Shown piece after piece: positions 1 through 10,637 of a DNA stretch of 10,969 bases. Source of the stretch: an uncultured archaeon (lineage in GTDB: Archaea > Asgardarchaeota > Lokiarchaeia > Sigyniarchaeales > SOKP01); NCBI GenBank assembly GCA_964388035.1, contig CAYLZE010000055.1, forward strand, positions 1-10,969, written 5' to 3'. Made by a program: the position numbers and the translations under genes. The notes under the pieces are model-generated. The model was not told where the DNA came from. It did not search any database and worked only from the letters and a program-made list of their open reading frames with translations. How positions within the stretch are numbered: position 1 is the stretch's first letter; every line of letters begins with the position of its first letter.

Positions 1-1839
1 CTCTGATTGAACGGAACGGGATGTCCCATAAGTAAAAAGTCTGATATCGCTTCCAATCGTATTATCGATAGTAGTTCCAATTCCCGCTCTCATTGATTCA
101 AGCATCACGCTCATCCCAATTAAGAAACTTACCGTGAGCGCGATCATTGAATAACTTAGAATCGTGCGTTTACGATGCCTTAATATGTTTTTCTCGGTTA
201 ATAATTTAGTTTGCTTGAGATAAGGTCCAAAGAAAAATATTATACCTTTTGAGAGTAAGCGCACAGCAAGGGCAGTTAAAATAATGATACCAAGTAAAAT
301 GAATGTTGGCCCTGCAATACTAGTTAATCCAGCCGTTCTAAGACCCGGTCCTTGACTTATTGAATAGATGGAATCCACGCCCAAGTAAATTAACCCTATT
401 CCAATCAGAGCATAAACAATTCTTTTTTTATAGGGTTTCTTTTCTCGTTCGCTTTTTTCTTCGATTGGATTTAAACATTCTATTAATGGCTTCCTGCTTG
501 CTTTATAACTAGGATAAAGTGATCCGGCTAAACAAGAACCTAATCCCACGGCGAAAGTTATGATGAGGGTGGTTGGATTCAACACGATTTCAAATTCAGA
601 AGGAGCAAAACCCATTCCACCCGAACTTTGAACCAACCCTTGCAGAGTATTTACAGTAAGAGAAAAAATGGCATAAGATATGAAATAGGATGCGACAGTT
701 CCAATCCCTGAGCCTACCAATCCCATTACTACTCCTTGGGTCAAGAATAACCGGAAAGTTTCAGATTTTGAAGCCCCTATGGCTTGAATCATTCCCGTTT
801 CATATTCCTGTTCTTCTCGGATGATATTAAAGATATTCCAAATTAAAACGATTGAAAGAATTAGGGATACCAGACTGAACATTAAAAACATGGTTCTAAA
901 AGTATCCATGGAAATGTTAATGCTATCAAGATAACTGGTTTTTAAATCAACCGTTTTCCAGTATTTTCCATTTTTTAATTGAGATAATTCATGTTGAACG
1001 TTTTCCATTACACCAGCAACGTTATAGATGCTATTTGCACCAATTGCAGCTAAAGTATATTCTCCTTTATGATTTTGCGTACCATCCACGAGTGCATGAG
1101 CATTATCAATATTACAGAATAGTAATGGTCCCGATTGAGAAATAGTGCTTGATTGGTTAGTTTCGGGATTGAAATCAACCGCTTCTGCATTATCCCGTAT
1201 TATGGCAGCTACAGTATACTCAGGCCACGTTCCTGTATTTTGCTCTTTATAACCAAAAGAATCTCCACTTACTGGAAAAATCCATAGACGTGAACCAGCA
1301 TTAATGTTTTTATTCAATAGTATTTGTAAAGATTCCGTAATTACCACTACTTTATCCCCCGTCTTTTGGTCTTTATAGGCAAGGAGATCATCTATAGAGG
1401 TGGCACCAGATAATGCCGGCACTGCAGCAATAATATAGGGGTCTGAACCTAAAGCGTTCTCATCCTCGCTATTGATATCGAGACCATAAACTTGGGTATA
1501 CGTGCTATTTTCAGCTTGATTCCCTTTATCCGTTCCGCTCACAAAAACATTAAATCCTGAAATTCTATATGCAACGTGAGCAACATTATCCGTGTTTCTT
1601 AAAATATTGTCTATTTCTCCGGGTTGGAACCAACCATCATCATAATTCCAGCGTACGAGCGAATCGGCTGGGCCTAATTGTTGGTTAATCGTGTTTAACA
1701 TCATGGCATTAAAAGAATCAGAAACAATGTTAATTCCTCCGAATAAAGAAACGCCGATAACTAATGTAATTGCGGTTAAAATGTATCGTGCCTTTCTTCT
1801 TCTCATGTTGCGTAGAGCAATTCTTAAAATTACTCCCAT
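1..1839 (-). CDS. FtsX/MacB-family ABC transporter permease (double-repeat type), 3' end outside the window
   Basis: Hand translation from ATG 1839 gives MGVILRIALRNMRRRKARYILTAITLVIGVSLFGG (MacB N-terminal motif plus TM1). The FtsX motif REEQEYETGMIQAIGASKSETFRLFLTQGVVMG lies near 720-820, and a second repeat KNILRHRKRTILSYSMIALTV near 130-195. The segments read are all in the same frame, which runs to position 1. Confidence 0.92.
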   Translation of the reverse strand, partial: MGVILRIALRNMRRRKARYILTAITLVIGVSLFGGINIVSDSFNAMMLNTINQQLGPADSLVRWNYDDGWFQPGEIDNILRNTDNVAHVAYRISGFNVFVSGTDKGNQAENSTYTQVYGLDINSEDENALGSDPYIIAAVPALSGATSIDDLLAYKDQKTGDKVVVITESLQILLNKNINAGSRLWIFPVSGDSFGYKEQNTGTWPEYTVAAIIRDNAEAVDFNPETNQSSTISQSGPLLFCNIDNAHALVDGTQNHKGEYTLAAIGANSIYNVAGVMENVQHELSQLKNGKYWKTVDLKTSYLDSINISMDTFRTMFLMFSLVSLILSIVLIWNIFNIIREEQEYETGMIQAIGASKSETFRLFLTQGVVMGLVGSGIGTVASYFISYAIFSLTVNTLQGLVQSSGGMGFAPSEFEIVLNPTTLIITFAVGLGSCLAGSLYPSYKASRKPLIECLNPIEEKSEREKKPYKKRIVYALIGIGLIYLGVDSIYSISQGPGLRTAGLTSIAGPTFILLGIIILTALAVRLLSKGIIFFFGPYLKQTKLLTEKNILRHRKRTILSYSMIALTVSFLIGMSVMLESMRAGIGTTIDNTIGSDIRLFTYGTSRSVQSE

Positions 1840-2728: not shown

Positions 2729-3919
2729 TTAAATTTTTCCTTTTAAATTGTCAGCTGAGAATGGTCCTTTTTCTCCAATCAATTCACGAGCCTCATCAAC
2801 CTTTTCCCATACATTCCATAGTAATACACCCCTAACTCTACCATCCTTCAAGTAATAAATCACCCCTTCTTCAAATTCCTCCTTCCAATCTTCCACTATC
2901 TCTAAAGAAGAATTCAATTCACCTACTGCCTCATATCCAAGTTCAAAAAGATCGGAATAAAATAGGGATAAATAATCGTAAGGTTCCTTTTCTCCCGCCA
3001 TGTTTTTTCCAGCGATTTCCCCCATCGAAAGGGCGTTATCCTCGTGTTCAACGCGAATGGATTTTTCAAGTAAGGAATTTCGGAAGTTTGCAACATCTCC
3101 CGCAGTATAAATATTAGGATCGTTCGTTTGAAGTAAATTATTTACGACGATTCCGTTATCCACTTTTAAATTAGATTGTTTGGCTAATTCTACATTTGGT
3201 TGAATACCCAAACCTGCCACAATAGTATCAAATTTATAATTCTTTCCGCTTTTGGTATCAACAGAAAATTCTTTTCCTTGCTTCTTTATATTCACGACCA
3301 ATTCTCCAGGATAAACCTTGACTCCGTTTTCGCGATAATAATCATTGATATAATCGCTCAAATTCTTAGGAAAAATTAGAGCACAAATCCCGGTTTCAGG
3401 AAATAATATGGTCACTTCTGCTTTAGGTTTATGCATTTTGATAGCTGCAGCAATCTCCGACCCGATAAATCCACCCCCAATCACACCAAACCTCTTATCT
3501 TTATCAACAAGCTTTTTCAACTGTTTATAATCTTCAAGAGTCCTATAATAAATTATTCCCTCTTCTTGAATATTTGGAAGTTTCCTTGGAGTTCCCCCCG
3601 TAGCTAATAAGAGTTTTTCATATGCAAATTCATCGTTTTGATCATCCATTACTATCTTCTTAGAACGGTCAATTTTGACTGCAGTGCGAGTGAGATGTAT
3701 TTCGGCATCAGTTTCAGTCGAGCCCAAATCAATATCCTCAACATCGTCTTCCCCCTTCCAGAGACCCTTAGAGAGGGGAGGACGTGCATATGGAGGATAT
3801 TTATCATTACTTATGAGTCCAATGGTTCCACTGGAATCAATTTCACGAATTCCTTCAATCGCAGTACTTGCTGCCATGCCCCCACCAATTATAAGATATT
3901 TATAGTTAAATTTAGTCAT
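2729..3919 (-). CDS. NAD(P)/FAD-dependent oxidoreductase, ferredoxin-reductase/AIF-like
   Basis: FAD-binding IIGGGMAA, PYARPPLSK, LLLATGG, NAD-binding VIGGGFIGSE, IYTAGDVA, RVEHEDNA and C-terminal GVIYYL..GVLLWN motifs. GGAAGTGA ribosome-binding motif upstream. Confidence 0.93.
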   Translation of the reverse strand: MTKFNYKYLIIGGGMAASTAIEGIREIDSSGTIGLISNDKYPPYARPPLSKGLWKGEDDVEDIDLGSTETDAEIHLTRTAVKIDRSKKIVMDDQNDEFAYEKLLLATGGTPRKLPNIQEEGIIYYRTLEDYKQLKKLVDKDKRFGVIGGGFIGSEIAAAIKMHKPKAEVTILFPETGICALIFPKNLSDYINDYYRENGVKVYPGELVVNIKKQGKEFSVDTKSGKNYKFDTIVAGLGIQPNVELAKQSNLKVDNGIVVNNLLQTNDPNIYTAGDVANFRNSLLEKSIRVEHEDNALSMGEIAGKNMAGEKEPYDYLSLFYSDLFELGYEAVGELNSSLEIVEDWKEEFEEGVIYYLKDGRVRGVLLWNVWEKVDEARELIGEKGPFSADNLKGKI

Positions 3920-4413: not shown

Positions 4414-5445
4414 TTGACAGAATATAAATCAGAAATTAAGGTAATTGAAGGAATAACTAAGATTAAAATCAACGTACCTTTTGCGGTACGATATGTAAGC
4501 GTTTATTTATTCAAAGCGGGAAGTGAATATGTGCTTTTTGATGCGGGGTTGAATATGGGAAATTGGAAGGAAATATTCTTTGCTGCTTTGGATGAAATTG
4601 GAGTATCCATTAAAGATGTTAATTATTGCTTCATATCTCATGAGCATCTGGACCATGAGGGATTAGCTAATACATTTAAACGGAGAAATCCAAATATGAA
4701 AATTTTAATGCATGATATTACTCATGAAATGCTCAAGTGGGAATCTGACGAAGAAAATATGGGTCACATCAAAAAGGATGCAGAGGAAATGGCTCGGATG
4801 ATGATGAAATATGGCATAAGTGAAGAACAAGGAGAGAAATTGGTACAATGGTTTACCATGTGGCCTAGATACAGAAAGTACGTGAAACCTGATATAATAC
4901 TTCATGATGGAGATGAAATACCTATCAGTAACGATGTACTGAAAATAATTTGGACTCCTGGACATAGCTTAGGGCATATTTGCGTTTATGATACCAATAC
5001 AAGTTATTTGTTTGGGGGTGACCATATATTATCTCGTATTACACCACATATTGGAAACTTCGCAATTAACCCTGTGATAAAACAAAAATATACCGATCAA
5101 GATTTCCACAACATTTTAAAGCGATATCTTAGCTCCTTGGATTTAATCGATAAATTAAATCCTAAAATTATATTTCCAGCCCATCAAGACATTATTTATA
5201 ATCCCCATGAACGCATTGAAGAAATAAAGGCTCATCATGATAAACGCTTGCGGGAAATTTCAGAGTTAATAAGAGATAATCCAATGACTCCCTTAGATAT
5301 TTCTTTTGAACATTTTGGTAATGAATTAGATGATATAAACCGATTTTTAGCGATGAGTGAAGTTTTAGGACACCTCATATTTTTAGAGGAACAAGGAAAG
5401 GTTAAAAGAATAGAACGTGATGGGAAGATATACTTTCAAAGTTAA
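4414..5445 (+). CDS. MBL-fold metallo-hydrolase with probable C-terminal winged-helix extension (TTG start)
   Basis: LFDAG, SHEHLDH (HxHxDH), TPGHSLGH, GGDH and PAH metal-binding motifs. C-terminal LAMSEVLGHLIFLEEQGKV helix. TTTATAT at 4373-4379 upstream. Confidence 0.92.
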   Translation: MTEYKSEIKVIEGITKIKINVPFAVRYVSVYLFKAGSEYVLFDAGLNMGNWKEIFFAALDEIGVSIKDVNYCFISHEHLDHEGLANTFKRRNPNMKILMHDITHEMLKWESDEENMGHIKKDAEEMARMMMKYGISEEQGEKLVQWFTMWPRYRKYVKPDIILHDGDEIPISNDVLKIIWTPGHSLGHICVYDTNTSYLFGGDHILSRITPHIGNFAINPVIKQKYTDQDFHNILKRYLSSLDLIDKLNPKIIFPAHQDIIYNPHERIEEIKAHHDKRLREISELIRDNPMTPLDISFEHFGNELDDINRFLAMSEVLGHLIFLEEQGKVKRIERDGKIYFQS

Positions 5446-5543
5446 AATAAAGTTTTAAAACTGATTCATTTACCCGAAGCTAATTCCAATACATTTTAAG
5501 TAGAAAATAAGATAATTAAAAAAAATGAATTAGTAACTTTAAT

Positions 5544-6440
5544 TTAAGAAGGCATGGTGAATTCTGTAATCTCAGGCAATACTTCAAGTTCGGGATAGAT
5601 TTTACCCGGGAGAGGAGGAGTTCCATTATATACTTCTTCAATATTGATTGAGCCCAAGGTAACTCCTCTATATTTTTTAAATCCCAGGAATGTTCCTTTG
5701 ACAACTTGCGCAATAAATTCCATGGTCATCCCATAAACGGCCACTTTAGCATTTTCAGGTATGGCTTTTAGTTGGCTTTCGTACATCGTTAAGGGAAAAA
5801 CTAATTTCGTGTAATCTGCAGCTAATAATTGAAAACAAGGAATGACAATTGGATATCCATCATGGGGATCCAAAAATGCGATAAATTTAGGATTCATGGC
5901 CCCCGTAAAAATTTGCCTTCCGAATTTATCTAATCTCACTTCTTTCGAGTTGGATTTGGCGGCCCCTTTTGCAATTTTATTTAGAATAATTCCTTTCAAT
6001 ACCTTACCGATAGACACGTCTTGGAGAGGAGAAGCGGAGATAACGTCATTATAAAACACCCTCCAGACATTCATTACTGTAGCATATCTCATTTCCTTGC
6101 TTGTATTAAAAAAGTCGATATCTTCTCCTTCCTTCCTTATTTCTTTAAAGTTCGCTTTGATTTGGAGCATTTGCATGGGTTTTTCAATGGACATGTATAG
6201 ATATCCGTGCTTTGGACGTTTTTGAATGTATTCTTTTGAATTCCCATGTAAGAATTGTCCCCAGACAATTTGCTTGCTTGATTTTGCACGATTGGTTACA
6301 ATAAACGTAAGATGAGGCCATCCTTTTTCATCAATTGTAGAGACTAATTTAACCATCATTGGCGCATGAGTGAATTCTTGCATTTCTCTACTCAATTCAT
6401 TTTTCCAATTACTTGTTATATTTAGATTTTCCAATTTCAT
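5544..6440 (-). CDS. Tandem pyridoxamine-5'-phosphate-oxidase-like (FMN/F420-binding split-barrel) protein
   Basis: Two related halves: VKLVSTIDEKGWPHLTFI...GNSKEYIQKRPK and PKFIAFLDPHDGYPIVIPC...IPENAKVAVYG. Start moved from 6500 to ATG 6440 (or TTG 6434, 5 nt after GAGGTGA), just downstream of the GRE stop. Confidence 0.75.
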   Translation of the reverse strand: MKLENLNITSNWKNELSREMQEFTHAPMMVKLVSTIDEKGWPHLTFIVTNRAKSSKQIVWGQFLHGNSKEYIQKRPKHGYLYMSIEKPMQMLQIKANFKEIRKEGEDIDFFNTSKEMRYATVMNVWRVFYNDVISASPLQDVSIGKVLKGIILNKIAKGAAKSNSKEVRLDKFGRQIFTGAMNPKFIAFLDPHDGYPIVIPCFQLLAADYTKLVFPLTMYESQLKAIPENAKVAVYGMTMEFIAQVVKGTFLGFKKYRGVTLGSINIEEVYNGTPPLPGKIYPELEVLPEITEFTMPS

Positions 6441-6447
6441 CACCTCT
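6441..6447 (-). promoter_or_regulatory. Shine-Dalgarno-like element between the GRE and split-barrel genes
   Basis: Minus strand reads TAA-AGAGGTG-ATG-AAA-TTG. GAGGTGA is complementary to the 16S rRNA 3' end. Confidence 0.65.
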
Positions 6448-8958
6448 TTACATTGCATGCATATCTCTCGATATGATTTCTTCTTGTAATTCTTTTCCAA
6501 TAGTTATGAAATAAGCATTGTATCCCGTGACTCTTACTAATAGTTCTTTATAATTTTCAGGATGCTTTTGTGCATCCCGTAGTAAGTCTGCATTTATCAT
6601 GTTGATTTGCAAAGCTGTACCGCCATTCTCGATATATCCTCTTAGATACGATTTGAATTTCTCGCGATGTTCTTTATCCTTCAAGAGTACACCGGGATTA
6701 AAAGTTATGGTGTGAGATGCTCCATTTGGTAGATAATTAATATAAGATCCTTCTTCGGTCTTTCCGCCTAATACTTTTCCTACAGAATTGGTCACGGCTG
6801 TTGGACCGCTGTTTGCAACTCCTGTAGTGGGACATATTGCATTAGACAAGAATGAACCGTTATTTCTTCCATCGGGAGTTGCTATCGTCCTTGAGGCATC
6901 TGGTCCAGCCCAATAATTCCAAGAGAGCATTCCCGGACGATATTGACAGTTATTTGGGGTTTTATATTTCCATGTTTCATCACACCAAGTTTTCATGACT
7001 TTCCGTGCTAATTCATCATAGTCTTCATTATTAATTCCATATTTTGGAGCTTTATTTTTAAACAGCGTTTGCATTACTGCTTCTTCCTTTCTTCCTTTAT
7101 AATCATGCAATAAAGCTTGCTTTATTTGAGAAATGGTATATTTCTTCTCTTCATATACATATTTCTTAACTGCCAAGAGAGAATCAACCGTGGTGGCAAA
7201 TCCTACTCCCTCAATGGTTATGAAAGCTAATTCAGGTCCCCCATTTCTTACATCGAGCCCTTTTTCTGCGCACCCCCTAATAATTGTTGAAACAAAAGGA
7301 GTGGGAAGCAATTCTGCTCTTAATTCTTCTTGAGGATTGTAAAGATCAACCACATGTTTTATCATGAATTTTACTTGTATGGTCCAAGCATTCCAAAATT
7401 CGTCCCAAGTTTTGAAGTCTTCGGGATCTCCACTTTTAGGTCCTAATTGTTTTTTACTTCTCTTGGGATCGTTGATGAGCATGGGCATATTTTTCCCATT
7501 CCACAACGTGAGTTCAATGCTTTTAGCTAAATTAGGATTGCAGTTAACTGTTCCACTGCGATCATTTCCTTGCATCGTATTCTCAAGACATCCAACACAT
7601 GCATAATTCCATGCGTCTTTTTCTGAAATTCCTTCCAATATCATCCCGGCTATAGAGCGTTCATCAAAATTCAATAAGAAAGGTGCCCCTTGAGATCGAG
7701 AGACCATAGCAATAATCACATTTAATAATCGATCGGGAGTATTCTTATGCAATCTTATGTTCGGTTTAGGTTCTAAGCTCGGAAACCACTCATCTACCAC
7801 TTCTAAAATTGTATAGGTTAATTCATTGGTAAGGTCTTCCCCATTAGGGCCACATCCTGATAAAGTAATGAGCTGTCCAAAAGAAGAATTAATTCCGTGC
7901 TTTCCTCCCATGCACATTAAAGCATCATATGCCGTATGACAATGAAACCAAAAGCTCCCTAAAATTTCTTTTGCAAACTCCTTGGTGATATTTTTTTCTT
8001 TAATTACATCCTTTTCGTACAGATCTCCTAAAATTATATCAAACCTACCGAACGAAGTTCCTGCTCCGGGATATGATTCTTCTGCCATGATCATCATGTG
8101 TGTCATCCATATCGCTTGTACACCTTGCCAAAAGGTTTCAGCAGGTCCCCAAGGCACCCTTTCCAAGCTTTTTGCCATCTCGTCGAGTTCTTTTACTCTT
8201 TCGGGAGTAGTCGCAACTTCTTTTAGCTTTCGGCACTTTTCTGCATACTTTTTAGCCAATTTCCTAGGAATTTCCGCTGATCGCATCATTGCTCGTAATT
8301 CATCTCCCTTGGGACCTTGTTTTTCTTGTTCAGAAAGTTTTTCATAATGTTGTTTTATTGATTCATAAATGTACTTAAATCCTTTCTTCACGACCATCTC
8401 ATAATCACAGATAATATGACCAGAACACGCTCCTGCATTGCCAAATCCGTTATAATGAAAAGCTTTTATGGCATTTCTATTTGTTAATGCTTTTTTCCAA
8501 TATTGTTTTGTTTGCTTTTTTGTAAAACATTTGCTTAATAACGTGCTAAAACGACCCCCCGCAAGAAGATCATTTTCAGAAATGATTTCTTGAGGAACGT
8601 AATCCAATATGACTGTTTCAAAGAATAAGGACCGTCTTTCAGGCAGAGATAGGTCCCAGAAATCTTCGGGTAATTTTACCGGGATAGCCATTGATTCTGC
8701 AGAATAATATGCCCCCTTTCCTTTATTGCCGATCATATCCAGGATATCAGGACCCACATAAAATTCTGCTTCATAGAGTATTACATCCCAATCAACACCA
8801 GTAGTGAAAAACATGAATTGATTATTCCAACTTCTTTCATATCCACTAAAATAATAATCTCTAAGCCATTTAGAGCGTGGTAATAAGTCATGTGCTTGAG
8901 CAACAAGAAATTTTGGCTCATTCCCTTTTGTGACTGAAATATTATCGATTTTACTCAT
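6448..8958 (-). CDS. Glycyl radical enzyme (PFL2/eliminase-decarboxylase-like superfamily), substrate unknown
   Basis: 836 aa. Glycyl radical loop LLVRVTGYNAYF (Gly812), thiyl loop YACVGCLE (Cys457, Glu459), and SFGRFD, GEDLTNELT, ATPDGR, APKYG motifs. Lacks the Cys-Cys pair of true PFL. Confidence 0.95.
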   Translation of the reverse strand: MSKIDNISVTKGNEPKFLVAQAHDLLPRSKWLRDYYFSGYERSWNNQFMFFTTGVDWDVILYEAEFYVGPDILDMIGNKGKGAYYSAESMAIPVKLPEDFWDLSLPERRSLFFETVILDYVPQEIISENDLLAGGRFSTLLSKCFTKKQTKQYWKKALTNRNAIKAFHYNGFGNAGACSGHIICDYEMVVKKGFKYIYESIKQHYEKLSEQEKQGPKGDELRAMMRSAEIPRKLAKKYAEKCRKLKEVATTPERVKELDEMAKSLERVPWGPAETFWQGVQAIWMTHMMIMAEESYPGAGTSFGRFDIILGDLYEKDVIKEKNITKEFAKEILGSFWFHCHTAYDALMCMGGKHGINSSFGQLITLSGCGPNGEDLTNELTYTILEVVDEWFPSLEPKPNIRLHKNTPDRLLNVIIAMVSRSQGAPFLLNFDERSIAGMILEGISEKDAWNYACVGCLENTMQGNDRSGTVNCNPNLAKSIELTLWNGKNMPMLINDPKRSKKQLGPKSGDPEDFKTWDEFWNAWTIQVKFMIKHVVDLYNPQEELRAELLPTPFVSTIIRGCAEKGLDVRNGGPELAFITIEGVGFATTVDSLLAVKKYVYEEKKYTISQIKQALLHDYKGRKEEAVMQTLFKNKAPKYGINNEDYDELARKVMKTWCDETWKYKTPNNCQYRPGMLSWNYWAGPDASRTIATPDGRNNGSFLSNAICPTTGVANSGPTAVTNSVGKVLGGKTEEGSYINYLPNGASHTITFNPGVLLKDKEHREKFKSYLRGYIENGGTALQINMINADLLRDAQKHPENYKELLVRVTGYNAYFITIGKELQEEIISRDMHAM

Positions 8959-9003
8959 AATATCACTTTTTTTTTAGATTGATTTATAATTTAAATAAAT
9001 TAT

Positions 9004-9031
9004 TTCCCAAATTGGGATTCCCAAATTGGGA
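9004..9031. repeat. Perfect 14-bp tandem repeat x2 (TTCCCAAATTGGGA), each copy containing a palindrome; putative operators
   Basis: 9004-9017 and 9018-9031 are identical, and TCCCAA-A-TTGGGA is an inverted repeat. Lies 46-73 bp upstream of the GRE ATG. Confidence 0.85.
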
Positions 9032-9054
9032 TATAAAAAAGTAATCAAGGTGAA

Positions 9055-9079
9055 AATATAAATCTTCCCTTTTTGGGAA
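9055..9079 (-). promoter_or_regulatory. Putative BRE-TATA for the GRE unit, overlapped by a third palindrome TTCCC-TTTTT-GGGAA
   Basis: Minus strand reads GGGAAGA-TTTATATT (TATA 9055-9062). The palindrome at 9065-9079 shares the TCCC-N5-GGGA consensus. Confidence 0.55.
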
Positions 9080-9285
9080 AGATGCAAATCTTGAAGAAAT
9101 CATTCAAAATTAAAGGTATAGAGGTAAGAACAATACCTTTATGCTCAAAAAACTAATTCCCGGTTCTTTTTCTGTTATACATTTAATTTTGACAAGATTT
9201 TATCCTGGCTTTTGAGCTTAACAACAAAATCCTAATCTTTTTCTTAAATTATTAAATTTCTTACTTAAAAGAAATTATTTTTCCA

Positions 9286-9840
9286 ATGGAAGAATTAGAT
9301 ATTCTTAAAATCGATGATCGAGGTAGAATTGCCATCCCTCTATCTATTCGAGAAATGCTTGATCTTCTTGGGAAAAAAGAACCAAGACTTTTAGTAACTT
9401 GGACACAAAGTGAAAAAGAGCTTAAGCTTAGATTTCTTGATCCTGCTTTAAAACATTTAGATATCAATAAACTAAAACTTCAATTGGAATTAAAAAGTAA
9501 AGAGAAATTTAAAATTTTAAAAATTGACAAGGGTGGGAGGATTGGTCTTACCAAACTGTTAAGAGACCACTTAGAGCTTGAAAAATATTCTTATATCATG
9601 GCCATTAGTAAACCAACAGAAAAAAACACAATTCTAAAGAAAGCCATGGTTCTTCAAATTAAAATTAAGGATACCTATGAATGGAGAGTAATTTGTCCCA
9701 TACCTGAAAATTTAGACGTATATGAAAAAATGTTGAGAGAACAGCATAATATTGATAATATTCAATTTTTTATGACCGATCCATATTATGAGAAAAAAAA
9801 AGTATTAGAAAGAAAATTAACACATCTTTTATCAGACTAA
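9286..9840 (+). CDS. Putative transcription regulator with two AbrB/SpoVT/MraZ-like domains and a C-terminal extension
   Basis: Internal repeat ILKIDDRGRIAIPLSIREMLDL and ILKIDKGGRIGLTKLLRDHLEL matches the AbrB/MraZ D.KGR..IP...R...L signature. Confidence 0.75.
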   Translation: MEELDILKIDDRGRIAIPLSIREMLDLLGKKEPRLLVTWTQSEKELKLRFLDPALKHLDINKLKLQLELKSKEKFKILKIDKGGRIGLTKLLRDHLELEKYSYIMAISKPTEKNTILKKAMVLQIKIKDTYEWRVICPIPENLDVYEKMLREQHNIDNIQFFMTDPYYEKKKVLERKLTHLLSD

Positions 9841-9911: not shown

Positions 9912-10637
9912 ATGGAATTAGATATATTAATAATTGCTAATGGAATCTCAAGTCTCATCGTTTCAATTGTATCCATTATCACGGGTTTAAAGATAGCTTC
10001 AAAGTATTTTCGATATAAAGAGCGGGTATTATTATTTGTAGGCATGACTTGGTTATTGATGTATGAAGCATGGTGGGGGCCCTCAATTTCATTTATATTA
10101 TTACTTCTTACAAATCAAACTTTACCCATTAGATTGTTTTTCTTAATATCCGTGAGTTTTACGCCTGTAGCGATTTGTTTATGGATGATCGCTTTTTTTG
10201 ATCTTGTTCATGAAAAAATGCTCAAACCCATCGCAATCATCTTTTCAATTCAAATTATCCTTTTTGAAATTTATGCTGGCTATTATCTCACTACTGACTA
10301 TTCGGTAATTGTTGAGAGCGTGGGTTTTATCGATGCAAGATATAAATCTTTTGTATTGCTCTTCTTTATCGAGGTTTTATGCCTATTTATAATAACAGTC
10401 CCGCTTTTTGTAAGAGAATCTATTCGTTCCGATAACCTAGAAGTCAAATTAAAAGGGAAATTCATATTATTTGGTTTCATCTTTGCATTAACAGGGTGGG
10501 TATTAGACGCATTTTTAGAATTAGATCTTTTAACCTTATTAATTTACAGGGGATTATTAGTGGTAAGCTCAATTACATTTTATTTCGGTTTTTTTCTGCC
10601 TAAATCATTGAAGCGGTATCTTTTAAGAGAGAATTAA
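9912..10637 (+). CDS. Stand-alone seven-transmembrane protein, function unknown
   Basis: Seven hydrophobic segments in 241 aa by eye, basic loops (SKYFRYKER, VKLKGK) and a C-terminal FFLPKSLKRYL tail. Confidence 0.8.
   Translation: MELDILIIANGISSLIVSIVSIITGLKIASKYFRYKERVLLFVGMTWLLMYEAWWGPSISFILLLLTNQTLPIRLFFLISVSFTPVAICLWMIAFFDLVHEKMLKPIAIIFSIQIILFEIYAGYYLTTDYSVIVESVGFIDARYKSFVLLFFIEVLCLFIITVPLFVRESIRSDNLEVKLKGKFILFGFIFALTGWVLDAFLELDLLTLLIYRGLLVVSSITFYFGFFLPKSLKRYLLREN

Follow-up and report, generated by a model that had tools for sequence, protein, structure and literature searches.

Why is the gene of a glycyl radical enzyme (GRE) followed, after only 7 nt, by the gene of a predicted split-barrel protein, and does this protein serve the enzyme or its activase? 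The question is raised by a stretch of 10,969 nt, in the following called the window, which makes up positions 1 to 10,969 of contig CAYLZE010000055.1 (C55) from an uncultured archaeon of the Lokiarchaeia type. The GRE gene (P0002; 6448–8958, minus strand) encodes a PFL2-class (PFL, pyruvate formate-lyase) catalytic subunit of 836 amino acids (aa) and ends with a TAA stop codon at 6450–6448. The barrel gene (P0001; 5544–6440, minus strand) encodes its partner, a predicted tandem split-barrel protein of 298 aa, from an ATG at 6440 to a TAA at 5546–5544. The spacer between them, AGAGGTG (6441–6447), resembles a Shine-Dalgarno (SD) sequence. A first-pass annotation, made from the letters of the window, had noticed this 7-nt gap with its SD-like GAGGTG ahead of a 298-aa frame, and its coordinates are correct on the sequence. 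It had also proposed a two-component system. The pairing of GRE and barrel stood up, but the count of components fell short: three genes form the conserved cassette, namely those of the GRE, a radical S-adenosylmethionine (SAM) activase with a ferredoxin insert, and the barrel.

We inspected 40 loci around barrel homologues from diverse Asgard genomes with 9-kb flanks, and in all 40 a GRE of this subfamily, an activase or both adjoined the barrel gene. This linkage holds down to 42% identity of the GRE and 25% identity of the barrel. We then considered 80 Asgard loci from species-representative genomes and 80 metagenome loci retrieved with seeds from a distant barrel clade (GC content 0.29–0.69). 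The barrel gene lies just downstream of the GRE, the activase (AE) or both in 74 of the Asgard and 64 of the metagenome loci. Among the former, the order GRE>AE>barrel was found 41 times, plus once with the GRE gene in two pieces, followed by AE>barrel (19 loci), GRE>barrel (6), GRE>barrel>AE (5) and AE>GRE>barrel (2); the barrel gene stood alone in six loci, five of them at contig ends. The metagenome loci comprised 45 cases of GRE>AE>barrel and 13 of AE>barrel, and most barrel-only cases had no upstream sequence. The metagenome GREs are 48–54% identical to the window GRE over the full length; the flanks are unrelated, and only the three genes are shared. Where AE>barrel occurs with no GRE nearby, the GRE is usually found elsewhere in the genome, 9–50 kb away or on another contig.

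In a sample of 400 Asgard genomes we found both GRE and barrel in 156, only the barrel in 14, only the GRE in 25 and neither in 205. These are metagenome-assembled genomes that are mutually related and not independent, and the counts are given without a P value. The GRE subfamily is present in 181 of the 400 genomes (about 45%). It is also carried by single-contig genomes of 4.3–6.0 Mb in the sister family f3, which may stem from cultured strains, and by many contigs from sediment, wetland and sludge metagenomes. GRE and barrel genes are accompanied by an activase gene in many Asgard archaea and apparently also in anaerobic bacteria. The pairing of GRE and barrel is not due to chance: both co-occurrence and adjacency of the homologues, the check that the first-pass annotation had named for its idea, go far beyond it. 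In three metagenome loci (L202, L210 and L218), the barrel gene is directly followed by the gene of a second, different GRE with 28–29% identity to that of the window. Three Asgard GRE orthologues contain in-frame stop codons (G163:C97:86-1879 with three TAA, G182:C41:77260-79716 with one TGA and G267:C33:20000-22489 with one TAA); possible explanations are pseudogenes, interrupted genes or errors of the assembly.

The genome from which the window stems (5.47 Mb) encodes three GREs of this subfamily and three barrel proteins. One pair is the tandem arrangement of the window, the second is divergent with 96 nt between the genes (contig C63), and the third is dispersed over contig C11. On C11, the GRE gene, preceded by a rubrerythrin gene, lies at 56.9 kb, 17.6 kb upstream of an activase-barrel group at 76.9–81.3 kb (C11:76933-81308, locus L094), which has the order activase, 468-aa pyridoxal phosphate-dependent decarboxylase (PF00282), barrel and DUF447. 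Six GRE activases of the genome score above the cut-off of TIGR02494, none of them in the window or on C55. The C11 activase (C11:76942-77913) combines a Radical_SAM domain with a two-cluster ferredoxin insert and is 72% identical to the activase of the canonical trio. The next closest, on C2, is 60% identical to that activase and adjoins a different GRE. The activases on C58, C2, C156 and C54 all adjoin other GREs, and no barrel homologue was found in those loci; the fifth non-cassette activase, on C187, lies beside a GRE fragment at a contig end. In total, the genome holds 10–11 GRE genes or fragments. Judged by these comparisons, the C11 activase is the only clearly cassette-type activase of the genome, and we infer that it activates the window GRE in trans.

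The window pair groups with the pairs of four further Asgard loci (L096–L099), with identities of 74–76% for the GRE and 62–68% for the barrel protein; a fifth pair, L100, is similar by identity and was left out of the trees. Phylogenetic trees built separately for the two proteins each unite the window-type sequences in a single clade (Shimodaira-Hasegawa-like approximate likelihood ratio test support 100 for the GREs and 99 for the barrels). Patristic distances of GRE and barrel are correlated within Asgard archaea (r = 0.91), which partly reflects a shared species history; the paralogue split does not. Window-type pairs are extra copies in genomes with a canonical cassette, for example ABR01, H3B.172 and SRP214966_co7_76. 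Most of those sampled have no activase in the fetched flanks (the window, L097–L099 and, on a short contig, L100), and L096 keeps one. At 260 positions, conservation of the GRE is at least 90% both in canonical Asgard and in bacterial-type members; the window clade departs from it at seven, with changes that include N341H (in five of five members) and D715A/T. The window pair is a co-duplicated GRE-barrel paralogue without its own activase. It may be a diverging module, activated in trans by the activase of the cassette and maybe acting on a related substrate.

Between GRE and activase, it is the GRE that the barrel accompanies. It appears to serve the GRE and not activases generally because the genome has three GREs and three barrels to one clearly cassette-type activase, and because the pair was duplicated without an activase and barrels are missing at the other GRE-activase loci of the genome. 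This bears on the idea that the barrel protein is a low-potential electron carrier with flavin mononucleotide (FMN) that reduces the [4Fe-4S] cluster of the activase for SAM cleavage, modelled on the Desulfovibrio FMN-binding protein or on flavodoxin for PFL activase. It would fit that the activase gene lies immediately upstream of the barrel gene in 61 of the 80 Asgard loci and that AE>barrel persists with no GRE nearby, and both halves of the barrel protein resemble the D. vulgaris FMN-binding protein in structure, one of their best matches (Z 11.0 and 9.7). Moreover, for most GRE activases we know of no physiological reductant. The three barrels per clearly cassette-type activase, the barrel-free loci of the C58, C2, C156 and C54 activases and the window-type pairs sampled, most of them without an activase in the fetched flanks (L096 being the exception), make such a carrier quite improbable in our estimation.

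What does the GRE itself catalyze? Its domain matches (PF02901, PFL-like, E-value 1.3e-120; PF01228, glycyl radical, 1.9e-21) assign the window protein to the PFL-like glycyl radical enzyme superfamily. The predicted glycyl radical loop R809-V-T-G812-Y, located from the translation, is encoded at 6520–6534 (minus strand) within a motif LLVRxTGYNAYF that is conserved subfamily-wide. The Cys loop C454-V-G-C457-L-E459 (7582–7599, minus strand) provides the putative thiyl Cys457 and a Glu459 at +2. Asgard and bacterial-type members have the signatures EESYPGxGxSFGR, GCLENTMxGNDRSGTV and RPGMLSWNYW in common, with conservation of at least 90% in both groups for the second. Among PDB sequences, the B12-independent glycerol dehydratase matches best (1r8w, E-value 1.8e-92), followed by HypD, IslA, Archaeoglobus PflD and CutC. 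The window GRE is more distant from BssA, MasD and HpdB than from these eliminases, with E-values of 1e-32 to 1e-60 (MasD 7.8e-60, BssA 1.6e-51).

In the alignment to 1r8w, H164, whose equivalents touch the substrate hydroxyl in the 1,2-eliminases, is kept as H181, and C433 and E435 are kept as C457 and E459; Cys457 also corresponds to the loop Cys of HypD. In contrast, H281, S282 and D447, which we take to be the diol-binding residues of glycerol dehydratase (1r8w numbering), are replaced by Ala299, Gly300 and Val471. The amine-binding D278 of HypD (its residue number derived from the tag offset) is replaced by Gly298. No cut-off of an NCBIfam equivalog was approached by the window GRE, with all scores far below, and the PFL2-3 subfamily model TIGR01774 gave 401 bits versus a cut-off of 678. 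With H181, C457 and E459 in place, the enzyme probably carries out a radical 1,2-elimination or a reaction close to it. On these residues, we class the window GRE as an uncharacterised eliminase-type GRE whose predicted substrate is neither glycerol, nor a simple 1,2-diol, nor trans-4-hydroxyproline.

Several more specific identities were considered and rejected. That of a glycerol or simple 1,2-diol dehydratase conflicts with Ala299, Gly300 and Val471 at the three diol-binding positions. HypD had come into view through a pyrroline-5-carboxylate (P5C) reductase gene near the cassette in six metagenome loci. The window GRE reaches 350 bits with the HypD model NF043068, versus a cut-off of 1100, and this neighbor is confined to loci with the same regulator genes; a HypD-like reading was rejected because the Asp278 equivalent is missing and the P5C reductase is limited to loci sharing regulators. 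PFL proper does not fit the loop G-C-L-E, which has no Cys-Cys, nor the score for TIGR01255 (92 bits versus a cut-off of 994). A fumarate-adding GRE of the Bss/Ass/Mas type was rejected as genes for small Fe-S subunits are missing and the enzyme is closer to glycerol dehydratase. Disulfide chemistry of a CxxC type as in ribonucleotide reductase, via the additional Cys454, was rejected as a family feature since bacterial-type members have Pro at this position.

For the barrel protein of the window itself, searches of Pfam (even at an E-value of 10), NCBIfam and PDB sequences yielded nothing usable; matches to ribosomal protein S11 were noise (E-value > 0.1). Its relatives are more informative, as PF01243 is matched by 12 of 31 close and 19 of 20 distant ones, always in the first half (best E-value 3.9e-11). 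An AlphaFold2 model based on 31 homologues reached a predicted local distance difference test score (pLDDT) of 84.5 and a predicted template modelling (TM) score of 0.83. We compared the models exhaustively with known structures and give Z-scores for the matches. The predicted N-terminal split barrel (residues 10–144; 6009–6413, minus strand) has a motif of the pyridoxamine phosphate oxidase (PNPOx) type and matches 3in6 (Z 13.2), 2htd (12.4), HupZ (12.3), MSMEG_3380 (11.2) and the D. vulgaris FMN-binding protein (11.0). Linker helices and a predicted C-terminal split barrel without the S-K motif follow (residues 145–272; 5625–6008, minus strand); residues 145–298 modelled alone (pLDDT 88.8) match 2htd (Z 11.6), HupZ (11.2) and 3in6 (11.0). 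The two halves align with each other in register, if weakly (hhalign P 7e-4, probability 26%). We conclude from the models that the protein is a tandem PNPOx-like split barrel, and the two PNPOx-like halves described by the first-pass annotation are both split barrels in the predicted structures (best Z 13.2 and 11.6).

The barrel family comprises 82 close homologues of about 292–296 aa, those with names belonging to Loki-, Thor- and Promethearchaeota, and 360 representatives at 50% identity clustering. None of the best 150 of these 360 exceeds 337 aa, and no fusion was seen among them. The name of one distant relative is that of a proteobacterial PNPOx-family protein, and among the atlas clusters Chloroflexota is the most frequent group. 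When 51 family members were aligned jointly, identity reached at least 94% at 26 positions: 14 lie in the N-terminal barrel (T35, P42, H43, I47, G61, F63, G66, S68, K69, P76, G105, N112, R118 and Y119), five in the C-terminal half and seven in the tail from Y271 to P283. The alignment contains no invariant Cys. We take the G-x-S-K ... P-K pattern (G66-x-S68-K69, P76) to mediate binding of the cofactor phosphate in PNPOx-like proteins. A bound ligand is argued for because this PNPOx-type motif is invariant across the family. Judging from the motif, FMN or F420 are plausible as the simplest candidates; the structural Z-scores of FMN-type and F420-type proteins for the N-terminal barrel lie within about 2 of each other. 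The genome can presumably make F420 because cofD and cofH are present, both above the cut-off, the latter at C11:49223-50260. A cyclic di-GMP receptor was rejected: the top full-length Foldseek matches to YcgR-N and PilZ receptors have TM-scores of 0.2–0.4 and root-mean-square deviations of 15–20 Å, and on reading the 298-aa sequence neither of the motifs RxxxR and D/NxSxxG was found.

Other members of this fold suggest a different task, in which the barrel protein would shield or maintain the radical enzyme, as an O2- or peroxide-consuming flavo- or haem protein (Anf3-like or HupZ/HutZ-like) or, in a variant, as a binder of a cofactor or substrate analogue. The structural matches include HupZ, HutZ, ChuZ and Anf3 (Z 8.4–12.3), and a rubrerythrin gene directly precedes the GRE gene in 16 of the 80 Asgard loci as well as on C11. 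Rubrerythrin is, however, restricted to a part of the Lokiarchaeia loci, and the gene clusters that recur in the metagenome loci do not include it. There is also no conserved His at the haem-ligand position of HugZ/HutZ, the sole family-wide invariant His being H43 in the PNPOx-type strand motif. A protective protein would further fail to explain the strict specificity for one GRE subfamily among the 10–11 GRE genes or fragments, and we regard this role as highly improbable.

The most conserved segment of the barrel protein comprises residues 265–285 (mean frequency of the top residue 0.68), which overlap the tail Y271-N-x-x-P-P-x-x-G-x-x-Y-P283 (5592–5630, minus strand). The AlphaFold2 pLDDT falls below 50 at residues 274–289 despite this conservation, and the tail is a candidate contact with a partner or ligand. 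The protein could accordingly be pictured as a pseudo-dimer in one chain that has kept one ligand site and reaches a partner or ligand with its tail. A conserved segment that is disordered in the monomer model would also be expected of a partner-binding peptide in a non-catalytic GRE accessory subunit, comparable to BssB/BssC or HpdC, that stabilises the enzyme or gates the movement of the glycyl radical domain during activation. The split barrels would then only be a scaffold or a small-molecule sensor. Such a subunit would account for barrel copy numbers that track those of the GRE, with both genes co-duplicated, and for the position of the barrel gene directly after the GRE gene in the window-type clade (about 7–17 nt). 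Split-barrel binding partners exist as well, and the GluTR-binding protein 4n7r_C matches with Z-scores of 8.8 and 8.1. Yet the accessory subunits of known GREs are small Fe-S proteins, whereas the barrel protein has 298 aa and no invariant Cys. A PNPOx-type ligand motif that is invariant across the Asgard and bacterial-type clades would be needless in a pure scaffold. In the canonical cassette, moreover, the activase gene and a gap of about 100–250 nt come before the aligned part of the barrel. We consider a non-catalytic subunit possible but doubtful.

We favor, tentatively and as plausible rather than probable, that the barrel protein is a GRE-associated flavin/deazaflavin oxidoreductase that takes care of the reactive product of the elimination or of its redox balance. 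In the mechanism we propose, it would serve the GRE itself and not the activase. Its N-terminal barrel would bind one flavin or deazaflavin (FMN or F420), and the degenerate C-terminal barrel would replace the second subunit of the usual split-barrel homodimer. The protein would dock on the GRE, possibly via its conserved C-terminal tail, and contribute the redox step of a two-step conversion, in which it would most likely reduce or otherwise process a reactive carbonyl, enal or imine product of the elimination. The roles of subunit, redox partner and downstream enzyme, among which the first-pass annotation had left the choice, are all alike compatible with the association to the GRE. Some observations weigh against the oxidoreductase that we favor. 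In most loci the activase lies between GRE and barrel, and AE>barrel persists as a pair where the GRE is now 9–50 kb distant or on another contig, which fits an activase-linked role about equally well. The closest relatives by sequence that have structures, HupZ and Ldb0262 (COG3576; E-value about 0.01), are without proven flavin chemistry. The barrel protein has neither an invariant Cys nor an NAD(P)H-binding domain, and in the window the SD is unusually near the annotated barrel ATG.

A stronger version would make the barrel an obligatory flavin/F420 subunit, and the enzyme the first GRE to couple a radical C-O (or C-X) elimination directly to flavin redox; we deem this unlikely. A speculative example of such chemistry would be the cleavage of a glycerol ether or ester lipid backbone, after which the flavin subunit would reduce the resulting enal or carbonyl. 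A 120-aa gene for an SCP2 (sterol/lipid carrier) protein lies between barrel and activase in L102–L105, which belong to one Asgard clade, and FadR-type regulators and a PlsC-like acyltransferase are encoded beside the cassette in some metagenome loci. Together with the membrane protein of the window-type loci described below, these neighbors are weak hints of a lipid-like substrate.

Other recurrent neighbors vary between loci. A sulfatase gene, a further weak hint about the substrate, was found beside the cassette in 36 of the 80 Asgard loci. Genes for DUF447, archaeal dihydroneopterin aldolase (PF04038), GHMP-kinase-like and AIRS-like proteins follow the cassette in 38 of the 80 Asgard loci (L111–L175); others have sulfatase, NMO-like and H+-pyrophosphatase genes after the barrel. 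A link to tetrahydromethanopterin biosynthesis, whose genes the DUF447 set resembles, was considered and judged to be local synteny, as these genes are not among the recurrent metagenome clusters and are absent from window-type loci.

How is the unit laid out in the window? A run of eight T (5518–5525, minus strand), resembling an archaeal terminator at the end of the unit, lies 19 nt past the barrel stop codon, and at the GRE-barrel junction we found no T-run comparable to it. Co-transcription of the GRE and barrel genes is the likeliest reading of the window sequence because of the 7-nt spacer and the lack of a T-run before the barrel gene. The orthologous junctions of L096–L100 have purine-rich, SD-like spacers of about 7–17 nt as well. 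The SD GAGGTG directly abuts the barrel ATG at 6440, and an in-frame TTG (6434–6432) lies 6 nt after it. Because the same SD precedes a TTG start by 7 nt in the L097 and L098 junctions, the true start may be this TTG, yielding a protein of 296 aa. Downstream, the unit ends against the gene of an MBL-fold (metallo-β-lactamase) hydrolase (4414–5445, plus strand) with a spacer of 98 nt, and this convergent arrangement agrees with the first-pass annotation.

The region upstream of the GRE gene (8959–9285) is an AT-rich spacer with palindromes, shared with a divergent regulator gene. The palindrome TCCCAATTTGGGA occurs twice in tandem (~9004–9031), and a third copy, TTCCC-N5-GGGAA, lies at ~9065–9079; these are likely operator sites. 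The regulator gene (9286–9840, plus strand) encodes an AbrB/MraZ-like protein of 184 aa, with weak matches to MraZ and AbrB. In L097 the same position is occupied by an ArsR-type winged helix-turn-helix gene. Judged from the two loci, the regulator was swapped between the window and L097, and the GRE-barrel pair and the membrane protein were kept. The latter (9912–10637, plus strand, also divergent from the GRE gene) is a strongly hydrophobic multi-pass protein of 241 aa that belongs to no Pfam family; copies with 58–62% identity are found at the same place in L096–L099 and L063. Transport or sensing of the GRE substrate may be its role. Two further window genes show no evident link to the GRE unit: one for an AIF-like pyridine nucleotide-disulfide oxidoreductase (2729–3919, minus strand; PF07992, E-value 1.5e-54, with AIF_C) and one for a MacB/FtsX-type permease (1–1839, minus strand) that runs off the start of the window.

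Is there a precedent for this combination? The window GRE shares with glycerol dehydratase DhaB1/DhaB2 of Clostridium butyricum (1r8w) the fold and domains, the glycyl loop, the thiyl Cys, the Glu at +2 and the equivalent of His164. It is of the same type as the Cys-x-Glu eliminases, which include propanediol dehydratase, CutC, HypD, IslA and HpsG/HpfG, but the substrate-binding residues of glycerol dehydratase and HypD are replaced. The cassette activase likewise has the two-cluster ferredoxin insert of eliminase-type GRE systems. We know of no Cys-x-Glu eliminase system with a conserved split-barrel protein as a third gene. BssABC and HpdBC are similar in having a subfamily-specific extra protein besides the activase; their extra subunits, however, are small Fe-S proteins, in contrast to the 298-aa tandem PNPOx-like barrel without invariant Cys. 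The fold of each half is that of the COG3576 proteins (Ldb0262, 2htd; HupZ), Swol_0183 (3in6), the D. vulgaris FMN-binding protein and the mycobacterial flavin/deazaflavin oxidoreductases MSMEG_3380 and Rv2074 (Z 9.4–13.2). Those small proteins are homodimers of chains of about 120–150 aa, whereas the window protein has two barrels in one chain, keeps the motif (PNPOx_N) only in the first and adds a conserved tail. To our knowledge, no small FMN or F420 split-barrel protein is a GRE partner, nor does any characterised GRE have a conserved split-barrel or flavin-fold component. In the literature searched, we found no paper with both "glycyl radical enzyme" and "split barrel", and none that describes the cassette.

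The nearest precedent is LssP, a PNPOx-annotated protein with unassigned role that is expressed from the operon of a limonene-activating, fumarate-adding GRE (PMC12583861). Compared by description only, this system differs in its GRE class, which has small subunits, and in its large catabolic operon. PFL2-type GREs of Asgard archaea were labelled alkyl- or benzylsuccinate synthases on the basis of 29–33% identity (PMC8163825). Our data give no support for such an assignment of the window GRE subfamily, whether or not those labelled genes belong to it.

The GRE superfamily itself is known; new is a GRE system with a conserved third component, a predicted split-barrel protein. GREs perform chemically hard anaerobic reactions, and newly assigned subfamilies have each revealed a new pathway. 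The conserved flavin-fold third component is a concrete handle for assigning the function of this subfamily. The window, with its duplicated GRE-barrel pair, is a natural experiment: because the pair was duplicated without an activase, the partner appears to serve the enzyme and not the activation machinery.

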